From the sequence record MW286157.1: a DNA stretch of 64,000 nt; one strand, 5' to 3'. The notes below the pieces were generated by a model. The model did no database searches, was not told the DNA's origin, and was given only the letters and a program-made list of their open reading frames with translations. Below, in pieces: positions 25,728 through 60,528 of the stretch. The stretch comes from Escherichia phage vB_EcoM-BECP11. Every line of letters begins with the position of its first letter. Position 1 is the first letter of the stretch. A program made the translations under genes and the position numbers.

Positions 25728-26180
25728 ATGGCATATTCTGGAAAATGGGTTCCTAAAAATATATCAAAGTATAGAGGTGACCCTAAAAAAATTACGTATA
25801 GATCAAATTGGGAAAAATTCTTTTTTGAATGGTTAGATAAAAATCCAGAAATTATTGCATGGGGTAGTGAAACAGCAGTAATTCCTTATTTTTGTAATGC
25901 AGAAGGGAAAAAACGTAGATACTTCATGGATATTTGGATGAAAGATTCTTCTGGACAAGAATTTTTTATTGAAATAAAACCTAAAAAAGAAACACAACCA
26001 CCAGTTAAACCAACACATCTAACAACCGCAGCGAAGAAAAGATTTATGAATGAAATTTATACCTGGTCTGTGAACACTGACAAATGGAAAGCAGCGCAAG
26101 CTTTAGCTGAAAAGCGTGGAATAAAATTTAGAATTCTAACAGAAGATGGATTACGAGCTCTTGGCTTTAAGGGGGCATAA
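25728..26180 (+). CDS. 4: head completion protein gp4
   Basis: 150 aa, SD AGGAG, T4 length and synteny. Confidence 0.9.
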
Positions 26181-27004
26181 TGGCTATTTTTCAAATAATT
26201 AATGAAAGCACTCCCCAAGTTCCAAAGGTTAAGCAATCATTAAACGAAAAGAAATGGATTCAGATAGGTCTTGAATATAAAAAGGCCAAAGCAAAAGGAA
26301 TGACAGGAAAGCAATTTGCTGAAGAAAGAGGAATCAAATACTCTACGTTTACTTCGGCAATGTCAAAATATGCTTCAGGAATTAAAACAGCTGAAAAGAT
26401 TCAAAAGCTTGAATCAAAACCAATGAATAAGCTCAATAAGCAAGAAAGACAACTGCTTATGATAAATTCATTCAGACAAACATTGCGTGATAAAATTCGT
26501 AATGAAGGCGCAGCAATTAATAATAAAACCAGAAAATGGTTTGCTGAAACTATTAAGCAAGTAAAAGGACATAAAGTTGTTCGCCCGCAGCCGGGACGAA
26601 TATATGCTTTTGCTTATGATGCTAAACACAAGGAAACTCTTCCTTACTGGGATAAATTTCCTTTGATAATTTACCTTGGTTTAGGTAAGCATAATTTAAT
26701 GTACGGATTGAACTTGCACTATATTCCACCTAAAGCTCGTCAGCAATTTCTAGAAGAGCTTTTAAAGCAATATTCAAATACACCTACTATTACTAATAAA
26801 ACGAAATTAAAAATTGATTGGAGTCAAGTGAAAGGATTTAGGGGTGCAGATCAAATGATTAAGGCATATATACCCGGTAATATTATGGGTAGCCTCGTTG
26901 AAATCGCCCCGAAAGACTGGGCGAACGTTGTGTTGATGCCACTTCAGCAGTTCGTTTCAAAAGGAAAACGTTTCTCTGCAAACAAAGTCTGGTCAAATAT
27001 CTAA
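26180..27004 (+). CDS. 2: DNA end protector protein gp2
   Basis: 274 aa, TAATG overlap with gene 4. Confidence 0.9.
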
Positions 27005-27110
27005 TTCTATTATCTTCCATTCTTTTCTGTTGTTTGTTCTAAATGGAATTGAATGGAAGGGACTTAGACCCATTATACCACCAACAGTTATAAAGCATTA
27101 TGAGGAATAT

Positions 27111-27641
27111 ATGTCGCAAGCTCTGCAACAAATTTTTAACCAAGCAAATACAACTAACTTTGTAGTATCAATACCACATAGTAATACTACATCTGCTTTT
27201 ACTTTAAATGCTCAGTCAGTTCCTATTCCAGGAATTAGAATACCTGTTACTGATACCGTGACTGGGCCGTTTGGACTGGGCCGAGCACAACGTCCAGGTG
27301 TTACATTTGAGTATGATCCACTCATTGTGAGATTTATAGTTGATGAAGAACTTAAGTCATGGATAGGAATGTATGAATGGATGCTAGGAACTAGCAACTA
27401 TCTTACAGGTGAAAATACTGCCCAAAAAACAGGTCCTGAGTACATTACGCTTTACATCTTAGATAATAGCAAAACTGAAATCGTGATGTCAATAAATTTT
27501 TATAAGCCTTGGGTTTCTGACCTATCTGAAGTAGAATTTAGCTATACGGAAGATTCAGACCCGGCTTTAGTATGTACTGCAACGATTCCTTACACCTATT
27601 TTCAAGTAGAAAAAGATGGAAAAATTATAGCAGAAGTTTAA
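27111..27641 (+). CDS. 3: tail completion and sheath stabiliser gp3
   Basis: 176 aa from ATG 27111 with SD TGAGGAA; track ORF starts at an upstream ATG with no SD. Confidence 0.85.
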   Translation: MSQALQQIFNQANTTNFVVSIPHSNTTSAFTLNAQSVPIPGIRIPVTDTVTGPFGLGRAQRPGVTFEYDPLIVRFIVDEELKSWIGMYEWMLGTSNYLTGENTAQKTGPEYITLYILDNSKTEIVMSINFYKPWVSDLSEVEFSYTEDSDPALVCTATIPYTYFQVEKDGKIIAEV

Positions 27642-27665
27642 TGCTTCAGTTTTGTGTGTTATAAT
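27641..27665 (+). promoter_or_regulatory. candidate MotA-type middle promoter for gene 1
   Basis: ATGCTTCA MotA-box-like motif followed 11 bp later by TATAAT. Confidence 0.4.
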
Positions 27666-27690
27666 CTTAATTAAATTTGAGGAGAAACAC

Positions 27691-28415
27691 ATGAAACTAA
27701 TCTTTTTAAGCGGTGTAAAGCGTAGTGGAAAAGATACTACTGCTGATTTTATCATGAGCAATTATTCTGCGGTTAAATACCAACTTGCTGGTCCTATTAA
27801 GGATGCATTGGCTTATGCATGGGGAGTATTTGCAGCAAACACCGACTATCCTTGCTTAACTCGTAAAGAGTTTGAAGGAATTGACTATGATCGTGAGACT
27901 AATTTAAATCTGACTAAATTAGAAGTAATCACGATTATGGAACAAGCATTTTGCTATCTTAATGGTAAAAGCCCAATTAAGGGTGTGTTTGTTTTTGATG
28001 ACGAAGGACAAGAATCAGTTAATTCCGTAGCATTTAACAAGATTATTGACGTTATAAATAATATTGAAGATCAATGGTCAGTCCGTCGTCTGATGCAAGC
28101 CCTAGGTACGGATTTGATTGTTAATAACTTCGACCGCATGTACTGGGTAAAATTATTTGCTTTAGATTATCTTGATAAATTTAACTCAGGTTATGATTAT
28201 TATATCGTTCCTGATACCCGTCAAGATCATGAAATGGATGCGGCTAGGGCGATGGGTGCTACAGTAATTCATGTAGTTCGTCCTGGTCAAAAATCCAATG
28301 ATACACATATTACAGAAGCTGGATTGCCAATTCGTGATGGTGATTTAGTAATTACAAACGATGGTTCTCTTGAAGAACTTTTTTCTAAAATTAAAAATAC
28401 ACTAAAGGTACTATA

Positions 28416-28416
<1 letters not shown>
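27691..28416 (+). CDS. 1: deoxynucleoside monophosphate kinase gp1
   Basis: 241 aa from MKLIFLSGVKRSGKDT (P-loop), SD GAGGAG. Confidence 0.9.
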
Positions 28417-29101
<685 letters not shown>

Positions 29102-29113
29102 TTTCACAAAGTT

Positions 29114-29143
29114 GTTTACATGCTGATGAGGTAGTGATACTAT
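29114..29143 (+). promoter_or_regulatory. T4-type early promoter for ipI
   Basis: TTCACAAAGTTGTTTACA then TGATACTAT -10; -10 lies inside an inverted repeat GATGAGGTA...TACCTCATC. Confidence 0.65.
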
Positions 29144-29173
29144 TACCTCATCAAAATTAATTAGGAAAATAAA

Positions 29174-29458
29174 ATGAAAACTTATCAAGAATTCACTTCA
29201 ACCACTAACGCTTCTACTTTGACTGAAGCGACCCTTACTTCTGAAGTTATTAAAGCAAACAAAGGACGTGAAGGTAAACCGATGATTAGCCTGGTTGATG
29301 GCGAAGAAGTCAAAGGTACTGTTTACCTGGGTGATGGATGGTCCGCTAAGAAAGATGGTGCTACAATCGTTATCTCCCCTGCTGAAGAAACTGCTTTGTT
29401 TAAAGCCAAGCATATTTCAGTAGCTCAGCTTAAAATTATTGCTAAAAATCTTTTGTAA
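29174..29458 (+). CDS. ipI: internal protein I (injected anti-restriction protein family)
   Basis: 94 aa starting MKTYQEF capsid-targeting sequence with L-x-E gp21 cleavage motif (LTE). Confidence 0.85.
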   Translation: MKTYQEFTSTTNASTLTEATLTSEVIKANKGREGKPMISLVDGEEVKGTVYLGDGWSAKKDGATIVISPAEETALFKAKHISVAQLKIIAKNLL

Positions 29459-29476
29459 TAAATTTTTCACAAAGTT

Positions 29477-29506
29477 GTTTACATAGGGTTTTAGTTGTGA
29501 TACTAT
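29477..29506 (+). promoter_or_regulatory. T4-type early promoter
   Basis: TTCACAAAGTTGTTTACA ... TGATACTAT, nearly identical to the ipI promoter. Confidence 0.65.
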
Positions 29507-29534
29507 TACCCTATCAACTACTGAGGAGAATAAA

Positions 29535-29720
29535 ATGAAACGTTGTGAATTAATTCGAAATGTTGCTATTGCAATTTCTGCTTCTGCTTTTAGTTTTTCA
29601 ATGTTTGTTGGATTTATATGCGGATTATTAACTACAGCAGAAAATGTATTTTCACTTGTAGTAGCATTTTTAATTGGTTTAATTGCTATCGTTATGGATA
29701 AAATTTCTAAAGGTGAATAG
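29535..29720 (+). CDS. small membrane protein, unknown function
   Basis: 61 aa with two hydrophobic helices, SD GAGGAG. Confidence 0.5.
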   Translation: MKRCELIRNVAIAISASAFSFSMFVGFICGLLTTAENVFSLVVAFLIGLIAIVMDKISKGE

Positions 29721-29721
29721 A

Positions 29722-30102
29722 ATGTATAAAGTGTACGCGGATTATCAGGCTAATCCATCTGAAAAGCCAGATTGCCAAATTGGATGGGCTCATGATACCC
29801 TGCTTGAAGCAGTAGATGCTGCTCAAAAATTAGGATATAAATATGTAGAGATTGTTCAACCGACAGGAAAAGTTATTACTCTTGAAGAGTTCAATAATAT
29901 TAAACCGAACTTTTTACTTTTTGCGGGTGATAATTATTATCCTCGCGGTGGGTATGCTGATTTAATCGCGAAAGCCGCTACTGAAGATGAACTCCGTGAT
30001 ATCATTAAAGAAAATGAGAACAAACCAATGTATGGTTCTAATCGCTTTGATTGGTGGCAAATTGTAAATGCCCACACTCATACTATTGTTGATGAAGGGT
30101 AA
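29722..30102 (+). CDS. hypothetical protein
   Basis: 126 aa from ATG 29722 with SD AGGTGA; track ORF starts upstream. Confidence 0.6.
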   Translation: MYKVYADYQANPSEKPDCQIGWAHDTLLEAVDAAQKLGYKYVEIVQPTGKVITLEEFNNIKPNFLLFAGDNYYPRGGYADLIAKAATEDELRDIIKENENKPMYGSNRFDWWQIVNAHTHTIVDEG

Positions 30103-30104
30103 TA

Positions 30105-30392
30105 ATGATTCTTTATGCTAAAGTATCGTCCATTGAAAATGGATATAAATATGATCAAGACGCGGCTAAATCCTTGATTGATGATTATGGCATTTTAACA
30201 TGTTTTGAAGTTGAAAAGGTTTATGTTGACCGTTCATCTTCTCAAGTTAAATTAGTGAAGGAAGACCGTAAATTTAATACAGTAAATTTTGATTTCTTTA
30301 TTGAAACAGAAAAAGGTCCTCTTGAATATGATATTTTCAGGAATCCTTTGGGCCTTGAATGCATCGTAAATATGTATTATCATAAATGGTAA
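30105..30392 (+). CDS. hypothetical protein
   Basis: 95 aa ORF tightly following previous gene. Confidence 0.6.
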   Translation: MILYAKVSSIENGYKYDQDAAKSLIDDYGILTCFEVEKVYVDRSSSQVKLVKEDRKFNTVNFDFFIETEKGPLEYDIFRNPLGLECIVNMYYHKW

Positions 30393-30395
30393 ATA

Positions 30396-30420
30396 TGCTT
30401 TAAGAATTATTTGTTATTAT
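30396..30420 (+). promoter_or_regulatory. candidate MotA-type middle promoter ahead of tRNA cluster
   Basis: TGCTTTA MotA-box-like motif, 12 bp, then TATTAT. Confidence 0.35.
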
Positions 30421-30489
30421 TAACTCATACCACACTGATTAATACCCTCTATCATCAAGGGTTCTTGTTTGAGAGCCTTTGTTAATAAT

Positions 30490-30562
30490 TGGGAATTAGC
30501 CAAGTTGGTAAGGCACTGGATTTTGATTCCAGGATGCAAAGGTTCAAGTCCTTTATTCCCAG
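30490..30562 (+). tRNA. tRNA-Gln (UUG)
   Basis: Hand-folded cloverleaf: acceptor TGGGAAT/ATTCCCA, anticodon loop TTTTGAT, T-loop TTCAAGT; no encoded CCA. Confidence 0.85.
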
Positions 30563-30563
30563 C

Positions 30564-30650
30564 GCGAGAATGGTCAAATTGGTAAAGGCACAGCACTTAA
30601 AATGCTGCGGAATGATTTCCTTGTGGGTTCGAGTCCCACTTCTCGCACCA
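30564..30650 (+). tRNA. tRNA-Leu (UAA)
   Basis: Acceptor GCGAGAA/TTCTCGC, anticodon loop CTTAAAA, long variable arm, encoded CCA. Confidence 0.85.
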
Positions 30651-30655
30651 AATTT

Positions 30656-30729
<74 letters not shown>

Positions 30730-30739
30730 ATTTAATTTA

Positions 30740-30813
30740 CTCCGTGTAGCTCAGTTTGGTAGAGCGCCTGATTTGGGATCAGGAGGTCCAAGGTTCAAAT
30801 CCTTGTATGGAGA
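30740..30813 (+). tRNA. tRNA-Pro (UGG)
   Basis: Anticodon arm CCTGA-TTTGGGA-TCAGG, T-arm CAAGG-TTCAAAT-CCTTG, acceptor with two G-U pairs. Confidence 0.8.
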
Positions 30814-30815
30814 CT

Positions 30816-30905
30816 GGAGGCGTGGCAGAGTGGTTTAATGCACCGGTCTTGAAAACCGGCAGTCGCTCCGGCGACTCATAGGTTCGAATCCTATCGCCTC
30901 CGCCA
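30816..30905 (+). tRNA. tRNA-Ser (UGA)
   Basis: Acceptor GGAGGCG/CGCCTCC, anticodon loop CTTGAAA, long variable arm, T-loop TTCGAAT, CCA. Confidence 0.85.
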
Positions 30906-30910
30906 GTTTT

Positions 30911-30986
30911 GCTGATTTAGCTCAGTAGGTAGAGCACCTCACTTGTAATGAGGATGTCGGCGGTTCGATTCCGTCAATCAGCACCA
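30911..30986 (+). tRNA. tRNA-Thr (UGU)
   Basis: Acceptor GCTGATT/AATCAGC, anticodon arm CCTCA-CTTGTAA-TGAGG, CCA. Confidence 0.85.
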
Positions 30987-30987
30987 A

Positions 30988-31062
30988 GGCCCTGTAGCTG
31001 GAAGGTTCAAGCAAGCGACTCATAATCGCCAGATGGTGGTTCAATTCCACCCAGGGCCACCA
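30988..31062 (+). tRNA. tRNA with CAU anticodon (Ile2 type as in T4, formally could be Met)
   Basis: Acceptor GGCCCTG/CAGGGCC, anticodon loop CTCATAA, T-arm GGTGG-TTCAATT-CCACC, CCA. Confidence 0.75.
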
Positions 31063-31074
31063 AATTATGAATTA

Positions 31075-31161
31075 GGGGAGTTATCCCGTAGAGGTAGCGG
31101 TGTGGACTGTAAATTCATTGTCATTGCGACTCGGGTGGTTCGACTCCATCACTCCCCACCA
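31075..31161 (+). tRNA. tRNA-Tyr (GUA), type II
   Basis: Perfect acceptor GGGGAGT/ACTCCCC, anticodon loop CTGTAAA with U33 and A37, long variable arm with 3 bp stem, CCA. Confidence 0.7.
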
Positions 31162-31165
31162 ATTT

Positions 31166-31240
31166 GGATGTGTAGCTCAATGGCAGAGCGATCGCCTGTT
31201 AAGCGATTGGTTATAGGTTCGAATCCTATCACGTCCGCCA
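31166..31240 (+). tRNA. tRNA-Asn (GUU)
   Basis: D-arm GCTC/GAGC, anticodon arm ATCGC-CTGTTAA-GCGAT, T-arm ATAGG-TTCGAAT-CCTAT, CCA. Confidence 0.8.
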
Positions 31241-31354
31241 AATTTGTGACAACTGTCACATTAATATCTACTTGACGCGATTATAGGGGTTGAACTGATC
31301 ACTCTTCTCTTAATTTCGTGTGAAGACATCATGATTGTTGGAGTAGGTATTAAT

Positions 31355-31430
31355 GTGGCCGTAGTTCAGTTGGTAGAACTCGAGATTGTGATTCTCGTAG
31401 TCATGGGTTCGACTCCCATCGGTCACCCCA
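31355..31430 (+). tRNA. tRNA-His (GUG) with extra 5' G(-1)
   Basis: 8 bp acceptor including G-1 opposite C73, anticodon arm CGAGA-TTGTGAT-TCTCG, T-loop TTCGACT, CCA. Confidence 0.8.
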
Positions 31431-31434
31431 ATTA

Positions 31435-31510
31435 CGGGGCATAGCTCAGAAGGAAGAGCAAGGACCTTCTAAGTCCTGGGTCGTAGGTTCGATCCCTACT
31501 GCCTCGACCA
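31435..31510 (+). tRNA. tRNA-Arg (UCU)
   Basis: D-arm GCTC/GAGC, anticodon arm AGGAC-CTTCTAA-GTCCT, T-loop TTCGATC, CCA. Confidence 0.85.
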
Positions 31511-31528
31511 ATTATAAGTGAGGAAAAT

Positions 31529-31879
31529 ATGAAAGGTAATGTTTATTTAGTAGTTCATGATTTAACATTCTATTTTAATCATAATGATACTGTTATTTCT
31601 GAACGCGTAATTAATTTGCTTTATCAGCATGCAGATTATGTTTATGTCGAAAACGAATTTGGTCATTGGCAATTTCTCAAAAATCGTTCATTTGGTTTAG
31701 ATGGTTACGAATATTTTGAACGTAAAGACCTTTTAGATAAAATTCCGTTATCTACACAATATCAAAATCACAAGTCTTTATATAAATGCCGTCCAATTCG
31801 AAATGCTGAATCTGCGTATGAAGTAATTGATTTATGGCGTAAACGTCGTGAACAGGTTGATGCTTTAAAAGAATACTAA
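31529..31879 (+). CDS. hypothetical protein
   Basis: 116 aa ORF with SD GAGGAAAA right after tRNA-Arg. Confidence 0.6.
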   Translation: MKGNVYLVVHDLTFYFNHNDTVISERVINLLYQHADYVYVENEFGHWQFLKNRSFGLDGYEYFERKDLLDKIPLSTQYQNHKSLYKCRPIRNAESAYEVIDLWRKRREQVDALKEY

Positions 31880-32186
31880 GAAACCGGGTCGCTACCGGTA
31901 AGTCGTCGGACTGATGTTCCCTGGAGTATAGTTTCCTCCCACAGTTTTACTGTGTTCTGGCTCTTTACTATCACAGCAGAAACGGCGCACCGAATTATCG
32001 ATTCGAGGAAATATCTTTGCCGTAAACCGAGTAGCGTTTTTGACGGAACGTTCGGATATGGTCGAGATATGGCCTTTTAAAAATATTGAGTAGCGTCAAC
32101 TGCTTAATAACCGGGTTCGAATCCCGGCGTTTCGTACAAACACTTGCCTTAGCAGGTGGAACCCCGACAAGGTTGCCGCAAGGCTT
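31880..32186 (+). ncRNA. candidate structured non-coding RNA region (possibly related to the small stable RNAs of the T4 tRNA region)
   Basis: About 300 bp with no credible ORF on either strand, GC-richer than surroundings, contains a T-arm-like hairpin CCGGG-TTCGAAT-CCCGG and ends at a strong terminator. Confidence 0.3.
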
Positions 32187-32215
32187 AGCCCCGACCGAAA
32201 GGTTGGGGCTTTTTA
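32187..32215 (+). terminator. intrinsic terminator, 10 bp stem with GAAA tetraloop
   Basis: AGCCCCGACC-GAAA-GGTTGGGGCT followed by TTTTT. Confidence 0.75.
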
Positions 32216-32260
32216 GTATAAATAAGTATATTAAATCCACGAATTAAAACAGGAAATAAG

Positions 32261-32734
32261 ATGAAATCATATACTCAATTTTTAAATGAAGCGGTGTTAA
32301 ATGAAGCATCTAGCACCGAAATTCAAGCTGTCGCAAAAGCAGCCATTGCAGCGGGTAAATATTCTTACAAAGATGCTTCTGATGAATCGCGATTTCAGTT
32401 CGCACGCGACATGAAAGCGGAAGGATTTACGGGAAATGCAGTTAGTATGGCCTGGAAAAGTTTAGTTGCTACTGGCGCTGCTTTTGCAAAGGCTTCGGGT
32501 AAACCTGCTCCTAAAGCAGATCCTAAAGTCGCACAAGAAAAAAATATCGTTAAAGGAATTATCTCCAAATATGAAGCTATCCTTAAAGAGCTTTTAGTAA
32601 TCAAAACTGAAGGCCAAAAGCTAGCTCGTGCTCATAGCTTTAAAGATAACCCACATGCTCATGACCTAGAGTATGTTGAAGACATCCAAAAAATTATTAA
32701 AGACCGCATTTGGTCTGCTAAACAAATCAAATAA
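32261..32734 (+). CDS. internal-protein-like protein with capsid-targeting sequence
   Basis: 157 aa starting MKSYTQFLNE-AVLNE-A, i.e. the MK-Y-F ten-residue capsid-targeting sequence plus L-x-E gp21 cleavage motifs seen in ipI and the ip gene after e. Confidence 0.65.
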   Translation: MKSYTQFLNEAVLNEASSTEIQAVAKAAIAAGKYSYKDASDESRFQFARDMKAEGFTGNAVSMAWKSLVATGAAFAKASGKPAPKADPKVAQEKNIVKGIISKYEAILKELLVIKTEGQKLARAHSFKDNPHAHDLEYVEDIQKIIKDRIWSAKQIK

Positions 32735-32741
32735 CATTCTT

Positions 32742-32770
32742 AGCCCCGACCAAAAGGTTGGGGCTTTTTG
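32742..32770 (+). terminator. intrinsic terminator, near-duplicate of the one at 32187-32215
   Basis: AGCCCCGACC-AAAA-GGTTGGGGCT followed by TTTTT. Confidence 0.75.
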
Positions 32771-32902
32771 GTATCTAGGCCTTTCCAGGCCTCTCTAGGC
32801 ATCATTTAGTTTCTACCCTTTATAATATATTATCCTATCCTTTGATTTCCCCTCCTTGCCCTAGAATTCCCCAAAACTTTTTAAAAAATTTTTCACAAAA
32901 CT

Positions 32903-32932
32903 GTTTACATCCCTGTTCTTCCATGGTACTAT
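32903..32932 (+). promoter_or_regulatory. T4-type early promoter
   Basis: TTTTTCACAAAACTGTTTACA ... TGGTACTATACAACTATC. Confidence 0.65.
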
Positions 32933-32975
32933 ACAACTATCAACTACTGATACAGAAAACAACTTGGAGAATGAA

Positions 32976-33239
32976 ATGGATAATTACGGCGAACTGTTCA
33001 ACTTCTTTATGAAATGTGTTTCAGAAGATTTTGGTCGTACAGTGAATGATATTAAAGTTATCGGTCCTGATCATCCGATGTTTGAAACTTACGCAGTAAT
33101 GGGTAATGAAGATGGTCAGTGGTATACTGTAAAGGTTGTGATTAACATGTTCACTGCTGAAGGTTATGTTAAACTGTCTTCTAAAGTTTATCATGATAAC
33201 GACGAAATTGCAGAAGAATATTTCAATAATATGAAATAA
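32976..33239 (+). CDS. hypothetical protein
   Basis: 87 aa from ATG 32976, SD GGAGA; track ORF starts at an upstream TTG. Confidence 0.6.
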   Translation: MDNYGELFNFFMKCVSEDFGRTVNDIKVIGPDHPMFETYAVMGNEDGQWYTVKVVINMFTAEGYVKLSSKVYHDNDEIAEEYFNNMK

Positions 33240-33269
33240 GTTTACATAGGCTCATGATTGAGATATTAT
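33240..33269 (+). promoter_or_regulatory. T4-type early promoter
   Basis: GTTTACA then TATTAT inside inverted repeat ATAGGCTCAT...ATGAGCCTAT. Confidence 0.55.
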
Positions 33270-33295
33270 GAGCCTATAATTTGAGGAAAACTGTT

Positions 33296-33814
33296 ATGTC
33301 TCTTTATACCGAACTGAATGAAACTTCCGAAAAATCTTTTGATGGTATCTTATCAATAATGCAAAAGCAGGTATTAGAAGAGCTTAGTGAAGCCGCAAGC
33401 AATGGGTACAAGGCTTGTCGAGTTCAAAGCCCACATCGCCGCATGTATGAACGTCCTCTTATTAATTGGCTAGAAAGCGAAGGTCTTACGGTTAAGATTT
33501 GCCCTGCTAAATTTGATGTCCCGCGTATTCTCAATATTTACTGGGATAAACCGGTTGAGAAAAGTGACACTTGGGTTGTTAATGTAAAAACATGTGATAA
33601 TGGATGCTCACTTGAGGTGTCTGCTGTAATTAAAGGCACTCATGGTGAAAAATCGTGGGGTTGGCCTGGTAAAGATAAAGAAATCGTGTTAAGTGTAAAA
33701 GCTACTAGTATTAGTACTCCTATAGCTAAAAGCATTATCACTGCCGCTGTTGAAGAAGCTGAACGAATTTGTAAAATTAAAAATAGTTTACATCTCTTAA
33801 ATAGCATGATATAA
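33296..33814 (+). CDS. hypothetical protein
   Basis: 172 aa from ATG 33296 with SD GAGGAAAA. Confidence 0.6.
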   Translation: MSLYTELNETSEKSFDGILSIMQKQVLEELSEAASNGYKACRVQSPHRRMYERPLINWLESEGLTVKICPAKFDVPRILNIYWDKPVEKSDTWVVNVKTCDNGCSLEVSAVIKGTHGEKSWGWPGKDKEIVLSVKATSISTPIAKSIITAAVEEAERICKIKNSLHLLNSMI

Positions 33815-33856
33815 TTTTTCTGTGGATTTTAATTTTAATCAACCTAAGGAAATACT

Positions 33857-36728: not shown

Positions 36729-37259
<531 letters not shown>

Positions 37260-37263
37260 AGTT

Positions 37264-37293
37264 GTTTACTTTCTCCTAGAATTGTGATAGTAT
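37264..37293 (+). promoter_or_regulatory. T4-type early promoter
   Basis: GTTGTTTACT ... TGATAGTAT. Confidence 0.6.
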
Positions 37294-37347
37294 ATTCACA
37301 GTTGCTTGAAGAGACAAATTACTAATTAAAATATTTAAAGGAAATAT

Positions 37348-37821
37348 ATGAAAACATATCAAGAATTTATCACTGAAGCAGCTATTAATTCTCAAATTAT
37401 TGCTGAATCTTTTACTGATCTTTTGAAATTTAAAAAAGGTCAAAAAATCACTGCTGTATTGGATGATGGTACAGAAGTTGAGATGGATGTACAGGGATAT
37501 AATTATGCAGTAGATGGAAAATTGTATAATAAATCTCATGCTAAATTTGATTCATTTGACGACTTTGTTAATACAGTTGAAGATGAAAAAACTCGTCGAT
37601 CCATTGCAACTGGTGATGCTAAGGTTCTTATGGCACATGGTCATGAACGCATTCGCGCTAAACAGAATAAAATGGGTGAAGATAATTTCGCATTAGTTGG
37701 TTATCAATCTGGTAAACAAACTTATGGCTATCAACGTACTGCTACCATGTATAATAAAAATGGTAAAATTGCCTTTGTAAATAGTAAAGGTTCTATTCAG
37801 TACGTTAAATCGTTCAAATAA
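37348..37821 (+). CDS. internal protein (ipII/ipIII locus) with capsid-targeting sequence
   Basis: 157 aa starting MKTYQEFITE-AAINSQIIAE-S; sits after e where T4 has ipIII and ipII, but the size differs from both. Confidence 0.75.
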   Translation: MKTYQEFITEAAINSQIIAESFTDLLKFKKGQKITAVLDDGTEVEMDVQGYNYAVDGKLYNKSHAKFDSFDDFVNTVEDEKTRRSIATGDAKVLMAHGHERIRAKQNKMGEDNFALVGYQSGKQTYGYQRTATMYNKNGKIAFVNSKGSIQYVKSFK

Positions 37822-37958
37822 TATGGGAACAGCCTGGACCTCATTTGAGGTATTCCCGCCAACCTGTGATAAGGTCGAGCCAAAGCGCGGTAATGGGTAA
37901 TGCAGGAATGGACAACTCATGTGCCATGGAATGGCCCAAAAACCTTAAGAGAAATAAC

Positions 37959-39957: not shown

Positions 39958-39987
39958 GTTTACTTTTCCTCTTGACTGTGGTATAAT
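39958..39987 (+). promoter_or_regulatory. T4-type early promoter for regB
   Basis: CTGTTTACT ... TGTGGTATAAT. Confidence 0.65.
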
Positions 39988-40014
39988 TTTTCTATCAGTT
40001 AAGAGGAGAATAAC

Positions 40015-44294: not shown

Positions 44295-44320
44295 AGTCTC
44301 CTTCGGGAGACTTTTTTCAT
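44295..44320 (+). terminator. intrinsic terminator
   Basis: AGTCTCC-TTCG-GGAGACT hairpin then TTTTTTCATTTT. Confidence 0.75.
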
Positions 44321-44327
44321 TTTACCG

Positions 44328-44358
44328 GTTTACTTTCCATTTGAGCTGTGATACTATA
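44328..44358 (+). promoter_or_regulatory. T4-type early promoter
   Basis: GGTTTACT ... TGTGATACTATACAACTATC. Confidence 0.6.
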
Positions 44359-45139: not shown

Positions 45140-45169
45140 GTTTACAAGTTGGCAAGGTTATGGTATAGT
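45140..45169 (+). promoter_or_regulatory. T4-type early promoter
   Basis: GGTTTACA ... TATGGTATAGT. Confidence 0.6.
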
Positions 45170-45197
45170 AATCTTGTCAACTGCCAAGGAGAAGAGA

Positions 45198-48310: not shown

Positions 48311-48312
48311 TA

Positions 48313-48340
48313 GGGAGCCTTCGGGCTCCCTTTTTTATTT
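48313..48340 (+). terminator. intrinsic terminator
   Basis: GGGAGCC-TTCG-GGCTCCC hairpin followed by TTTTTTATTT. Confidence 0.8.
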
Positions 48341-48362
48341 CAAAAATTTTTTTCGCAAAACT

Positions 48363-48392
48363 GTTTACAAGCATAAAGCTTTATGGTACTAT
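48363..48392 (+). promoter_or_regulatory. T4-type early promoter
   Basis: CGCAAAACTGTTTACA ... TATGGTACTATACAACTATC. Confidence 0.65.
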
Positions 48393-48430
48393 ACAACTAT
48401 CAAAACAAATGAGTAAATTGGAGATACAAA

Positions 48431-48631
48431 ATGACTACTTTGAATAAACGTTTCGGTAAAGCTAAATCTGGTTGTGCAGCTGAACGTCGTTATGTTTTCG
48501 CTCAGTTAGAAGATGTAGAGTATCAGATTAATCAAGTTCACATTACTGGTATCGAGCCTATGTGTGGCCTTGAAGCTCTTCGTGAAGTTCGTGACGGGTA
48601 TCGTCGTGACATCGAAGAAATGTCAAAATAA
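48431..48631 (+). CDS. small hypothetical protein
   Basis: 66 aa, SD TGGAGA, Arg encoded exclusively by CGT. Confidence 0.6.
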   Translation: MTTLNKRFGKAKSGCAAERRYVFAQLEDVEYQINQVHITGIEPMCGLEALREVRDGYRRDIEEMSK

Positions 48632-48661
48632 GTATACAAACTGATAGGACTATGTTATAGT
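48632..48661 (+). promoter_or_regulatory. candidate early promoter within inverted repeat
   Basis: GTATACA (one mismatch to GTTTAC) ... TGTTATAGT, -10 embedded in GATAGGACTA...TAGTCCTATC. Confidence 0.4.
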
Positions 48662-48688
48662 AGTCCTATCAAATCAAAGGAGAATAAA

Positions 48689-50063: not shown

Positions 50064-50093
50064 GTTTACAAGACTGTTCCTCTGTGGTACTAT
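50064..50093 (+). promoter_or_regulatory. T4-type early promoter
   Basis: GTTGTTTACA ... TGTGGTACTATACAACTATC. Confidence 0.65.
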
Positions 50094-50121
50094 ACAACTA
50101 TCAACTACGGAGGAACAGAAA

Positions 50122-52015: not shown

Positions 52016-53035
52016 ATGAAAACTCGTTCTCAAATTGAAGATATGGTTCGTAATGCCAGCTATACCCGTAATGTTATGACATTTTTGTGCCAAAATAATT
52101 TAGACCCTGATAGAGTTAATAGTTCCATTCACTTTAAATATATGAATAGCAGTGAATGGTTACGTCATTTTGATAAAGCTGGATATATTACACAAATGAC
52201 TGCTCGTGAACAGCTCACCGATTTCTGTAAAACTATTGATTATAAAAATCCTCTATTTGTTCAAGGTGTTGGTCAGAGTAAGGTTGATTTATCATCTGGA
52301 TTTTTCAATCCCAATCATTATCGTATTGAATGGAGATTTATTGCTCTATTCCGTAAACAGTTAAAGCAAATTTTGTCGACAGCTAGTCGATTAAAAGGTT
52401 CTGACATTAACTTAAAGAACCTGAAATTTGATGGTTATACTCTTCAGATGGAAGTAAGACCATTAAAAGAAAATAATAGAACTGCACGAATTAGCTTTAA
52501 ACCTAATACAAAAAATTCTCTTTCAATTTGTGAATGCCTTAAATCACAGTTGACAGAAGCATTTAAGTATATGGATGTTGTTGCCGCTGTTCAGTCTAAG
52601 ATTTTACCTCGTTTTGAACGATTTAAGTTAGATACAACATCATATGAACTTGATATGATCGTTTCATTTAAATACGATTTTTTGAGAAAGGACGAAGTCC
52701 CGCAAGAGAAAAAGCAGGAAGTACAAGATAACTTAAATTTATCCAATTACTTATCAAACGATCCTAAATTTTGGATGTATAGTTCAGGTAATAATGATGC
52801 ATGGAAATTCAATAAAGTGAATTTTCTTCCTGTTGAAAATCCGAGTCTTAAACCTGTTGAAAAATGGCACGCGGATGCGATTGAGAAGTCTATCAAGGCA
52901 GTAGATGATGAACTCGTTAAAGCGACCAATGAAGTGCTAGAAGCTGAAAAGGCGTTAGAACAAGCTCAGTCAAGGGTTCAAAATCTGACAAAGCAACGTT
53001 CTAAACTGAACAATGCATTAAATGCACTGAACTAG
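52016..53035 (+). CDS. hypothetical protein with C-terminal coiled-coil tail (2 of 4)
   Basis: 339 aa; ends ...VKATNEVLEAEKALEQAQSRVQNLTKQRSKLNNALNALN. Confidence 0.6.
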   Translation: MKTRSQIEDMVRNASYTRNVMTFLCQNNLDPDRVNSSIHFKYMNSSEWLRHFDKAGYITQMTAREQLTDFCKTIDYKNPLFVQGVGQSKVDLSSGFFNPNHYRIEWRFIALFRKQLKQILSTASRLKGSDINLKNLKFDGYTLQMEVRPLKENNRTARISFKPNTKNSLSICECLKSQLTEAFKYMDVVAAVQSKILPRFERFKLDTTSYELDMIVSFKYDFLRKDEVPQEKKQEVQDNLNLSNYLSNDPKFWMYSSGNNDAWKFNKVNFLPVENPSLKPVEKWHADAIEKSIKAVDDELVKATNEVLEAEKALEQAQSRVQNLTKQRSKLNNALNALN

Positions 53036-53064
53036 TTTACTTTGCCACAAGGATGTGGTATAAT
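53035..53064 (+). promoter_or_regulatory. T4-type early promoter
   Basis: GTTTACT ... TGTGGTATAAT, overlapping the stop of the upstream gene. Confidence 0.6.
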
Positions 53065-59293: not shown

Positions 59294-59760
59294 ATTATGA
59301 TAGATTTTATCCTTGCGATTTTGTTAATGGTCCTGGGTGCAGGACCGTTCTTTTTGTTACTGGATGTTTGCATAAATGCGAAGGGTGTTATAATAAATCA
59401 ACATGGAATGCTAGAAATGGTATTCCATTCACTGGTGAAACATTAGAACAATTAATTGAATGTTTGAATAATGATTATATAGAAGGATTAACTATAACCG
59501 GGGGTGACCCTCTCTATCCTGATAACCGAGATGTTGTTCATTGCATTGTTCAAACAGTAAAAAATCTTTATCCCAATAAAAGCATTTGGTTGTGGACAGG
59601 ATATAAGTTTGAAGATATTAAACAACTAGAAATGCTTAAATATGTTGATGTTATTATTGATGGGAAGTATGAGAAAAATCTTCCGACCAAAAAGCTGTGG
59701 CGAGGATCAGATAATCAGCGACTTTGGTCAAATACCGATGGGGTGTGGACACATGATTAA
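59290..59760 (+). CDS. nrdG: anaerobic RNR activating enzyme NrdG (radical SAM)
   Basis: 156 aa; CxxxCxxC cluster motif CLHKCEGC; ATGA-coupled to nrdD. Confidence 0.9.
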   Translation: MNYDRFYPCDFVNGPGCRTVLFVTGCLHKCEGCYNKSTWNARNGIPFTGETLEQLIECLNNDYIEGLTITGGDPLYPDNRDVVHCIVQTVKNLYPNKSIWLWTGYKFEDIKQLEMLKYVDVIIDGKYEKNLPTKKLWRGSDNQRLWSNTDGVWTHD

Positions 59761-60399: not shown

Positions 60400-60403
60400 G
60401 ACG

Positions 60404-60428
60404 GGCCCTCTGGGCCTTTCTTTCTCGC
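60404..60428 (+). terminator. intrinsic terminator
   Basis: GGCCC-TCT-GGGCC hairpin followed by TTTCTTTCTC. Confidence 0.6.
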
Positions 60429-60497
60429 ATTCTGTATATTACCATTCTAAGCTATCGTTCCCTTCTTGTCATTCCCTAAAATATTTTTCACAAAGTT

Positions 60498-60528
60498 GTT
60501 TACAACAAGTTCAAACCGTGGTATTATT
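60498..60528 (+). promoter_or_regulatory. T4-type early promoter
   Basis: TTCACAAAGTTGTTTACA ... CGTGGTATTAT. Confidence 0.6.

Follow-up and report, generated by a model that had tools for sequence, protein, structure and literature searches.

Here we report an analysis of 64,000 nucleotides (nt) of Escherichia phage vB_EcoM-BECP11 (sequence record MW286157.1; this whole stretch is hereafter referred to as the window), centred on the repeated early-promoter cassettes that flank ipI, the gene for internal protein I, at positions 29101–29520. An original prediction had described such cassettes as promoter-early-stem-loop (PeSL) elements that bracket variable genes and mark the borders of non-T4-like insertions. 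Our analysis supports, at a probability of about 0.85, an explanation in three parts: the blocks are early promoters, their copies are passive crossover points at gene cassettes, and separate, conserved hairpins around the −10 box would act in RNA read through from upstream. The elements of the ipI locus are listed here, and the hairpin classes are defined below.

29102–29173, plus strand: early promoter cassette ahead of ipI, orthologous to the T4 promoter at 73938
29124–29153, plus strand: class A hairpin over the −10 box of the ipI promoter (−17.2 kcal/mol, z = −6.4, spacer-shuffle p = 0.002)
29174–29458, plus strand: ipI, internal protein I (nuclease inhibitor), a variable cassette gene (PF11634 IPI_T4, E = 1.3e-51)
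29465–29534, plus strand: second promoter cassette, ahead of trna.4 (−35 box 29477–29483, −10 box 29501–29506, hairpin 29483–29514)

Early promoters, their repeats and nearby terminators

A megablast search with positions 27000–33000 matched 1162 phage records, headed by Escherichia virus CAM-21 (99.2% identity), and the top matches all belong to Tequatrovirus, the genus to which we assign the window on this similarity. T4 aligns with positions 26065–29724 at 97% identity and in the same order (megablast), and the plus strand of the window corresponds to the early-transcription strand of a T4-like genome. The stretch at 29101–29520 sits between Acb1 (PF23474) and trna.4 and contains ipI, which begins with the capsid-targeting leader MKTYQEF. 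The ipI promoter consists of an upstream block (TTTCACAAAGTTG), a −35 box GTTTACA (29114–29120), TGa followed by the −10 box TACTAT (29138–29143), a leader and a Shine–Dalgarno (SD) site.

The heptamer GTTTACA starts at 29114, 29477, 32903, 48363, 50064 and 60498, exactly the six positions at which the original prediction had placed its promoter blocks. An 18-mer, TTCACAAAGTTGTTTACA, is found without mismatch at 29103, 29466 and 60487 and with 2–3 mismatches at 32892 and 48352; these five matches compare with 0.21 expected, a level reached in 0 of 100 shuffles, and the copy at 50064 has only AGTTGTTTACA in common with the 18-mer. A generic sigma-70 scan showed no enrichment (77 sites, against 77.0 in shuffled sequence), and we therefore used the full T4 early-promoter pattern, GTTTACW-N14-TGNTANNNT, which has 12 matches against 0.02 expected, all on the plus strand between 29 and 61 kb. 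These exact matches, together with one-off variants at 33241 and 48633 (the latter with the −35 box TATACA), make up our set of 14 promoters, in which those at 33241, 33787, 37265, 39959, 44329, 45141, 48633 and 53036 add to the six already listed.

The promoters share one architecture, comprising an A/T-rich upstream region, a −35 box GTTTAC(A/T), a 17-nt spacer, TGn, a −10 box TAnnAT, a leader and an SD. The 24 nt upstream of the −35 box are 78% A+T, compared with a regional background of 65%, as is characteristic of an upstream promoter (UP) region, and an ATG follows 26–30 nt past the −10 box at 10 of the 14 promoters (whole range 26–54 nt, all on the plus strand). About 11 of the 14 are orthologous to T4 promoters ahead of the same genes; such orthologues in T4 precede ipI, trna.4, e.8, e.6, ipIII, ipII, regB, mobD.5, mobD.2, nrdC.10, nrdC.8, nrdC.4 and 55.6. 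In the annotation of Yersinia phage fPS-90, the homologous sites are predicted early promoters and terminators. By their sequence, the blocks are thus ordinary sigma-70 early promoters of the T4 type, and their activity is predicted by orthology with T4.

The repeats comprise five direct-repeat families (D1–D5; 36–78 nt long, 60–81% identity) dispersed across the hyperplastic regions. The description of the blocks as near-identical was sound in that they are repeated T4-type promoters, but it overstated their likeness: the ipI-flanking pair matches at 81% of 53 nt, including a 20-nt exact tract, and other copies are 60–76% identical. The notion that the repeats reflect a chance likeness among A/T-rich intergenic stretches of no common function has virtually nothing left in its favour beyond the generic scan, which stayed at the shuffled level. 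It is already refuted by the specific motifs, which lie far over expectation, by their restriction to one strand at fixed spacing to start codons, and by their conservation in T4 and its relatives.

Two scans for terminators gave 24 and 22 terminator-like sites, where 10.9 and 8.4 would be expected; one at 59326, inside nrdG, was not counted as an element. The four terminator hairpins named by the original prediction are real, each followed by a T-run, but their loops were only partly as described. UUCG loops are confined to the terminators at 44295–44312 and 48312–48331; that at 32742–32765 has an AAAA loop, its paralogue at 32187–32210 has a GAAA loop, and at 60403–60417 the hairpin loop is 3 nt long and the tail is weak. 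The G+C-rich stem, short loop and U-run of an intrinsic terminator accordingly occur together at 32187, 32742, 44295 and 48312, and weakly at 60403. Promoters had also been said to lie often just after a terminator. This applies at 44295 and 48312, which precede the −35 box by 17 and 33 nt, but the distance is a loose 82 nt at 60403 and 139 nt at 32742, and the remaining 10 promoters, among them both copies at 29101–29520, lack the upstream stem-loop that defines a PeSL.

Hairpins formed by the promoter spacer

The inverted repeats that the original prediction had noted around the −10 box at three sites are genuine (−17 to −18 kcal/mol, z about −6.5), with coordinates that required shifts of about 2–6 nt. 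The ipI hairpin has its 5′ arm within the spacer, the extended −10 as its loop and a 3′ arm that ends near +3. The other two are located at 33246–33277 (−18.0 kcal/mol, z = −6.7) and at 48642–48671 (−17.7 kcal/mol, z = −6.5), the latter belonging to a promoter that the prediction had not listed.

We evaluated these structures with a spacer-shuffle test, in which only the 14-nt spacer is shuffled and its complementarity to the following sequence is scored. In the window, 9 of the 14 promoters have p ≤ 0.022 (Fisher combined p = 1.5e-10). In a wider sample of 140 unique promoter-to-ATG sequences from 34 loci (the window plus 33 others related to it), p is at most 0.05 for 54% and at most 0.01 for 46%. 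In T4, of whose genome three quarters was covered, the test is significant for 15 of the 33 early promoters defined by the motif (combined p = 1.8e-13). The 73 significant hairpins fall into two classes. Class A hairpins (48 of 73) have the 5′ arm in the spacer, a loop formed by the extended −10 and a 3′ arm at about −6 to +3; examples are those of ipI, trna.4, 33241, 45141 and 48633, and of T4 dmd, motB and ipII. In class B hairpins (25 of 73), an anti-SD run in the spacer pairs with the SD of the gene, as at regB and nrdC.8, at T4 motB.2, alt.-3 and ndd.4, and at denV in relatives. Three further hairpin-bearing promoters of the window are as follows.

39958–40010, plus strand: regB early promoter with a class B hairpin (−21.4 kcal/mol, z = −5.7)
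45140–45182, plus strand: early promoter with a 15-bp hairpin over the −10 box
50064–50118, plus strand: nrdC.8 early promoter with spacer–SD pairing, a class B hairpin (−23.2 kcal/mol, z = −6.7)

At both regB (39959) and nrdC.8 (50064), the SD lies within a stable helix. The spacer of the regB promoter (UUUUCCUCUU) is complementary to the regB SD site (AAGAGGAGAA); two related loci (L019 and L020) carry a compensatory variant, and in a distant genus the inner half of the stem is altered and the SD is still covered. Pairing is likewise kept among orthologues of the trna.4 promoter (GGGTTA/TAACCC, GGGCTA/TAGCCC and TAGGACTA/TAGTCCTA) and of the e.6 promoter (GAGGAC/GTCCTC, GAGAGC/GCTCTC, GGGAGT/ACTCCC and GGGAAC/GTTCCC). 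When 22 promoters are aligned without gaps, pairing holds in 85% of cells, compared with 69% after shuffling, 59 cells carry double changes, compared with 20, and the covariation score is 0.62, compared with 0.29 for shuffled and 0.09–0.25 for slid partners. Furthermore, pairing is better between the two arms of one promoter than between arms taken from different promoters in three registers (z = 7.5, 6.1 and 4.1), a comparison that involves no selection.

Hairpins and upstream terminators are nearly mutually exclusive. Among all 140 sequences, a hairpin accompanies an upstream terminator (within 150 nt) in 1 of 27 cases, compared with 75 of 113 promoters without such a terminator (p = 8e-10). 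The same holds in the window alone (0 of 4 versus 9 of 10; p = 0.005), in T4 alone (1 of 8 versus 14 of 25; p = 0.046) and over 39 ortholog groups (2 of 8 versus 23 of 31; p = 0.016). We rejected the −10 hairpins as intrinsic terminators, because they have no U-run, and as the stem-loops of PeSLs, because they overlap the promoter rather than precede it and are exclusive with real upstream terminators. A scan against Rfam returned tRNAs only and no family for the hairpins.

Two observations in related phages concern the same structures. Spacer–SD pairing is found in T4 at the early promoters of ndd.4 (166806), alt.-3 (123092), the 136335 site, 30.8, regB, nrdC.8 and motB.2, and the copies at 123092 and 136335 have nearly the same 21-bp stem. 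In the IMG/VR genome UViG_3300045988_118042, one promoter combines a trna.4-type spacer with an ipI-type downstream arm (ATGGGGT...ACCTCAT), and an A-to-G change restores pairing; on its sequence, this promoter looks like a recombinant that subsequently underwent a compensatory change.

The 5′ arm lies between the −35 and −10 boxes, upstream of any start at about +1 (the start site being assumed), and the promoter's own transcript would therefore lack it, so that the hairpin could form only in RNA read through from upstream. The mutual exclusivity with terminators suggests that a hairpin and a terminator are alternative ways to handle this upstream RNA. The functions that we infer for the two classes differ. 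Class B hairpins would block translation of read-through RNA, so that regB and nrdC.8 would be made only while their own early promoters fire; their translation would then be limited to the immediate-early period, which would fit the known need for tight RegB control. Class A hairpins may give the upstream message a hairpin end, as a substitute for a terminator, and the most economical guess is that they would protect its 3′ end after cleavage in the A/U-rich leader or at GGAG. A more general proposal is possible, albeit doubtful: about half of T4-type early promoters might carry a selected RNA hairpin made from their own spacer, which would act as a sensor of transcript origin by masking the SD or by giving a terminator-free cistron boundary. 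Masking of the SD would apply at regB, nrdC.8, motB.2, alt.-3 and ndd.4, and at denV in relatives.

Cassette exchange and competing explanations

We aligned positions 26–64 kb of the window with 12 relatives (T4, CAM-21, F1, slur03, Sfk20, EcNP1, fPS-90, G10400, WL-3 and three IMG/VR genomes) and chained the colinear blocks; the IMG/VR scans gave 24 and 26 loci, among which close relatives were few and several contexts were unrelated or due to chance, and the nine named genomes come from the phage GenBank collection. The comparison yielded 60 distinct breakpoint clusters, 14 of which are no more than 20 nt away from a promoter block or terminator. As these elements cover 5.8% of the sequence, breakpoints are enriched at them relative to random positions (binomial p = 7e-6), but at the level of gene junctions the enrichment is weak (p = 0.05). 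The claim that the elements border non-T4-like insertions was borne out at five slots where elements bound cassette swaps (ipI, the terminator-repeat cassettes, e.7, IP2/3 and 48331–48679), but only 4 of the 15 discontinuities between the window and T4 have an element at a border. The remaining ones are gains or losses of homing endonucleases and an intron (segB, mobB, mobC, mobD and I-TevII) or exchanges at overlapping stop and start codons. In some indels, the flanks overlap at terminator or promoter repeats, and most indels in the region end at gene boundaries without an element. The elements are thus one substrate of cassette exchange and not a general marker of foreign DNA. The other elements of the window are as follows.

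32184–32219, plus strand: GAAA-loop intrinsic terminator, the left member of a 36-bp direct-repeat pair
32739–32774, plus strand: AAAA-loop intrinsic terminator, the right member of the 36-bp direct-repeat pair
32892–32932, plus strand: early promoter before e.8, no spanning hairpin
33240–33277, plus strand: early promoter with a 13-bp hairpin over the −10 box (33246–33277), left border of the e.7-slot replacement
33786–33815, plus strand: early promoter before e.6, right border of the e.7-slot replacement, hairpin lost (present in orthologues of other phages)
37264–37314, plus strand: early promoter with a hairpin, ahead of the IP-like DUF7412 gene
44295–44357, plus strand: UUCG terminator (44295–44312) with an early promoter 17 nt downstream, the canonical PeSL layout
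48312–48392, plus strand: UUCG terminator (48312–48331) and early promoter (48363–48392), left border of a 275-bp insertion
48632–48671, plus strand: early promoter (−35 box TATACA) with a 12-bp hairpin over the −10 box, right border of the 275-bp insertion
53035–53064, plus strand: nrdC.4 early promoter with a small hairpin within the spacer
60403–60527, plus strand: weak terminator-like hairpin (60403–60417) and early promoter with the exact 18-mer (60487–60527)

The focal locus is the long-known hyperplastic internal protein 1 (IP1) locus. This slot contains one or two internal protein (IP) genes, each with its own promoter copy, and at least six different open reading frames (ORFs) occupy it across 13 loci. 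In six comparator genomes, ipI is replaced by a different IP gene; the left border of the swap, at 29193–29207, falls within the conserved capsid-targeting codons, and the right border, at 29465–29494, falls in the next promoter copy. The e.7 slot, between the promoters at 33241 and 33787, differs in nine genomes (breakpoints 33287–91 and 33824–35), the IP2/3 slot has a breakpoint cluster at 37248–37379, and the breakpoints of the 275-bp insertion slot are at 48331–48434 and 48679. At 32184–32774, the cassettes are bracketed by terminators rather than promoters: the ORF at 32261–32734 (157 aa), which has no Pfam match, is inserted relative to T4 and has on either side a direct repeat of the intrinsic terminator (36 bp, 94% identity; breakpoints 32219 and 32740), and five genomes have a further cassette of 634–659 bp bounded by the same repeat.

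The primary job of the promoters would be to express the small accessory genes that follow them in the immediate-early period. Their copies are dispersed homologies of 50–100 nt, all in one orientation, and would in addition serve as passive crossover points for the homologous recombination of T4. A crossover between copies would swap promoter-plus-gene cassettes, as in the published PeSL and IP-locus model, and would be one route among several; at the IP loci, the homology runs on through the conserved capsid-targeting codons. This history of recombination is a reconstruction that we infer from the genome comparison.

Several features of the neighbourhood complete the comparison with T4. From 26 kb on, the window follows the T4 gene order, which is 2, 3, 1, 57A, 57B (acb1), ipI, trna.4-.2 and the tRNA array, followed by e.8-e.2, nudE, e, vs.8-vs, tk, rI, mobD.x and nrdC.x; at the end of the window it is nrdD, gene 55 and then the a-gt region. 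The array at 30490–31510 contains eleven tRNA genes (Gln, Leu, Gly, Pro, Ser, Thr, Met, Tyr, Asn, His and Arg), compared with eight in T4, and lacks segB; many of the breakpoints there correspond to homing-endonuclease insertions of other phages. At 26992–27002, the window has no counterpart of a 668-bp mobB-like homing endonuclease gene that CAM-21, which is otherwise 99% identical, carries between genes 2 and 3, and T4 mobB, mobC, mobD and the nrdD intron with I-TevII are also absent from the window. The e-to-vs.8 slot (37260–37893) holds a single IP-like DUF7412 gene (37348–37821, leader MKTYQEF), where T4 has ipIII-ipII-denV. A tblastn search of the whole 64-kb window gave no match to T4 denV, and endonuclease V appears to be missing from its usual place in this phage. 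We rejected a promoter-mediated origin for the loss of nrdC.4 in G10400, because the deletion runs between the 5′ ends of nrdC.4 and nrdC.3, which are homologous. Its borders are 53112 and 54152, these 5′ ends read ATGACTCGTAAC... and ATGAAAACTCGTAAAC..., and the two genes resemble tandem paralogues.

An improbable alternative is that PeSLs are dedicated mobile modules that undergo targeted or site-specific exchange through promoter-plus-ORF mini-circles, which excise and reintegrate. Such mini-circles were detected in RB49 and phi1, and a recombination protein binding the stem-loop was speculated upon (Arbiol 2010, PMC2839356). It would also accord with the presence of the same element on both sides of several cassettes (32184/32739, 33241/33787 and 48363/48633) and of a stem-loop, upstream or embedded, at each promoter. 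However, the stem sequences vary among copies, making a sequence-specific protein site unlikely; most breakpoints lack an element; the positions of breakpoints within the blocks vary (capsid-targeting codons, leader and spacer); most of the promoters are stable orthologues ahead of conserved genes; and no recombinase is associated with the elements.

Somewhat better placed, but still unlikely, is the possibility that the −10 inverted repeats matter or arise in DNA, as cruciforms or extruded hairpins that expose the −10 box and aid melting, as recombination hotspots, or as non-adaptive products of quasi-palindrome templated mutation, by which the arms would stay complementary in the absence of selection on RNA. 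The core stems are perfect Watson–Crick runs of 7–14 bp that also form when either strand is folded as DNA (z = −4.4 to −7.3), their loop falls on the extended −10, and the count of G.T against A.C pairs outside the consensus does not significantly favour RNA. According to the T4 record, moreover, 14 nt of promoter Pe133295 had at one time been given as their inverted complement. These nucleotides (T4 133300–133313; RefSeq note 'correcting early promoter Pe133295') form the loop and the inner part of the stem in a −10-spanning hairpin, GGTAGAGTTGTG-ATAT-TATAGCTCTACC. Templated quasi-palindrome mutation is documented in T4, reportedly by Ripley and colleagues, and could help to keep the arms complementary. 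Nonetheless, mutation of this kind would explain the upkeep of a palindrome and not why about half of the promoters gained one at an exact position. As DNA, the structures are weak (about −8 kcal/mol, with loops of 8–12 nt), and extrusion from a duplex is costly. The spacer–SD stems of class B, with their 10–15-nt loops, G.U pairs and bulges, make sense only in RNA, and the terminators with which the hairpins are mutually exclusive act on RNA. The geometry of class B and this exclusivity favour pairing in RNA over pairing in DNA.

Two points weigh against the reading of the original prediction: at 29101–29520 itself, the window is colinear with T4, and the upstream stem-loop that defines a PeSL is present at only 2–4 of the 14 promoters. 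Others weigh against our explanation of early promoters, passive crossovers and read-through hairpins. Breakpoints fall in 10 of 15 element-bearing junctions and in 25 of 66 element-free ones (odds ratio 3.3, Fisher p = 0.05), and the junction-level p is 0.14 for promoters alone and 0.26 for junctions with gaps of at least 40 nt. Across the 12 genomes, 25 of the 35 breakpoint-bearing junctions lack an element and 5 of the 15 element-bearing junctions lack a breakpoint. T4 recombination also occurs at homologies of 2–10 bp (PMC9391042), and a recombination role of the elements is inseparable from their plain intergenic location. The transcription start sites of the promoters are assumptions based on the motif and on T4. 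As for the hairpins, those of class A have no U-tract and no contact with the SD, so that their benefit is speculative. The asymmetry of G.T over A.C pairs, 26:1, is confounded by the −10 consensus and falls to a non-significant 4:1 outside it; the advantage of sense over antisense folding is small relative to background (p = 0.024) and biased by selection and by background strand asymmetry. The 22-promoter covariation alignment was pre-selected on predicted pairing, the p values over 140 sequences overstate independence because the promoters share descent, and the hairpin has been lost in some orthologues, such as that at 33787 in the window.

Relation to known systems

The cassettes and their role in gene shuffling are already known for this genus and locus. 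PeSLs were defined in RB49 and phi1 (PMC2839356), in a paper that credits Repoila et al. 1994 with PeSL-like repeats of promoter plus stem-loop at two T-even IP loci, and were extended to the T4/PST pair with the consensus TTTACW-N17-TAYWAT (PMC4122927; Comeau, Arbiol & Krisch 2014). The match to PeSLs made by the original prediction is therefore apt for the published PeSL-like elements of T-even phages, with which the cassettes of the window share the consensus, the genus (including T4), the IP1 locus between 57B and trna.4, and the proposed exchange of cassettes by recombination of repeated promoter and terminator motifs; they are not substantively different. It does not extend to the −10 inverted repeats, which differ from the PeSL stem-loop; the published stem-loop lies just upstream of the promoter, an arrangement that the window has at only the 2–4 promoters noted above. 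Like the cassettes of the window, the PeSLs of RB49 and phi1 lie in hyperplastic regions beside small ORFans and at indel borders, but those of RB49 have near-consensus TTGACA/TATAAT boxes and, upstream of the promoter, stems that are G-run/C-run terminators. The authors of PMC2839356 regard the T-even elements as analogues, not homologues, of the RB49 PeSLs. The promoters themselves have the UP, −35, TGn and −10 components of T4 early promoters and belong to that class (Liebig & Ruger 1989; Hinton 2010 review, PMC2988021).

The cassettes are thus a textbook-level feature of T-even phages, one that explains the shuffling of internal-protein and anti-defence genes, such as ipI beside acb1, between phages, with the caution that, when gene junctions serve as the control, repeated promoters account for a minority of indels. 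The embedded hairpins may be the more interesting part and worth a closer look. If our reading of them is correct, the translation or message stability of many T4 early genes would depend on which promoter made the RNA; the hairpins would help to explain why the production of many early proteins drops abruptly and why RegB is tightly controlled; and they would be relevant to the engineering of T4-like phages, as genes inserted behind these promoters would alter the pairing. In the portions available to us of the 2010 reviews on T4 transcription and post-transcriptional control and of the PeSL papers, neither a −10-spanning hairpin nor an early-promoter anti-SD arm is described, the only cases named being e, soc, 49 and I-TevI with their late promoters, and an earlier description is possible.

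The closest counterparts of class B are the hairpins of T4 e, soc, 49 and I-TevI, which sequester the ribosome-binding site and contain an internal promoter (review PMC3014915). In both systems the SD is paired with an upstream arm that the promoter's own transcript lacks. The internal promoter of the known device is a late promoter (TATAAATA) and permits late-only translation, whereas the promoters of the window are of the early type. In class B, the anti-SD arm is the early promoter's own spacer, and the predicted effect would be the opposite one, immediate-early-only translation. Class A hairpins resemble the intercistronic stabiliser hairpins of the repetitive extragenic palindromic (REP) type, as at malE-malF, and the terminators that protect 3′ ends, in being stable, U-tract-free stems between co-transcribed genes. 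Unlike the REP-type and malE-malF hairpins, they are built from the core sequence of a promoter, and the stabilisation that they would provide is putative.

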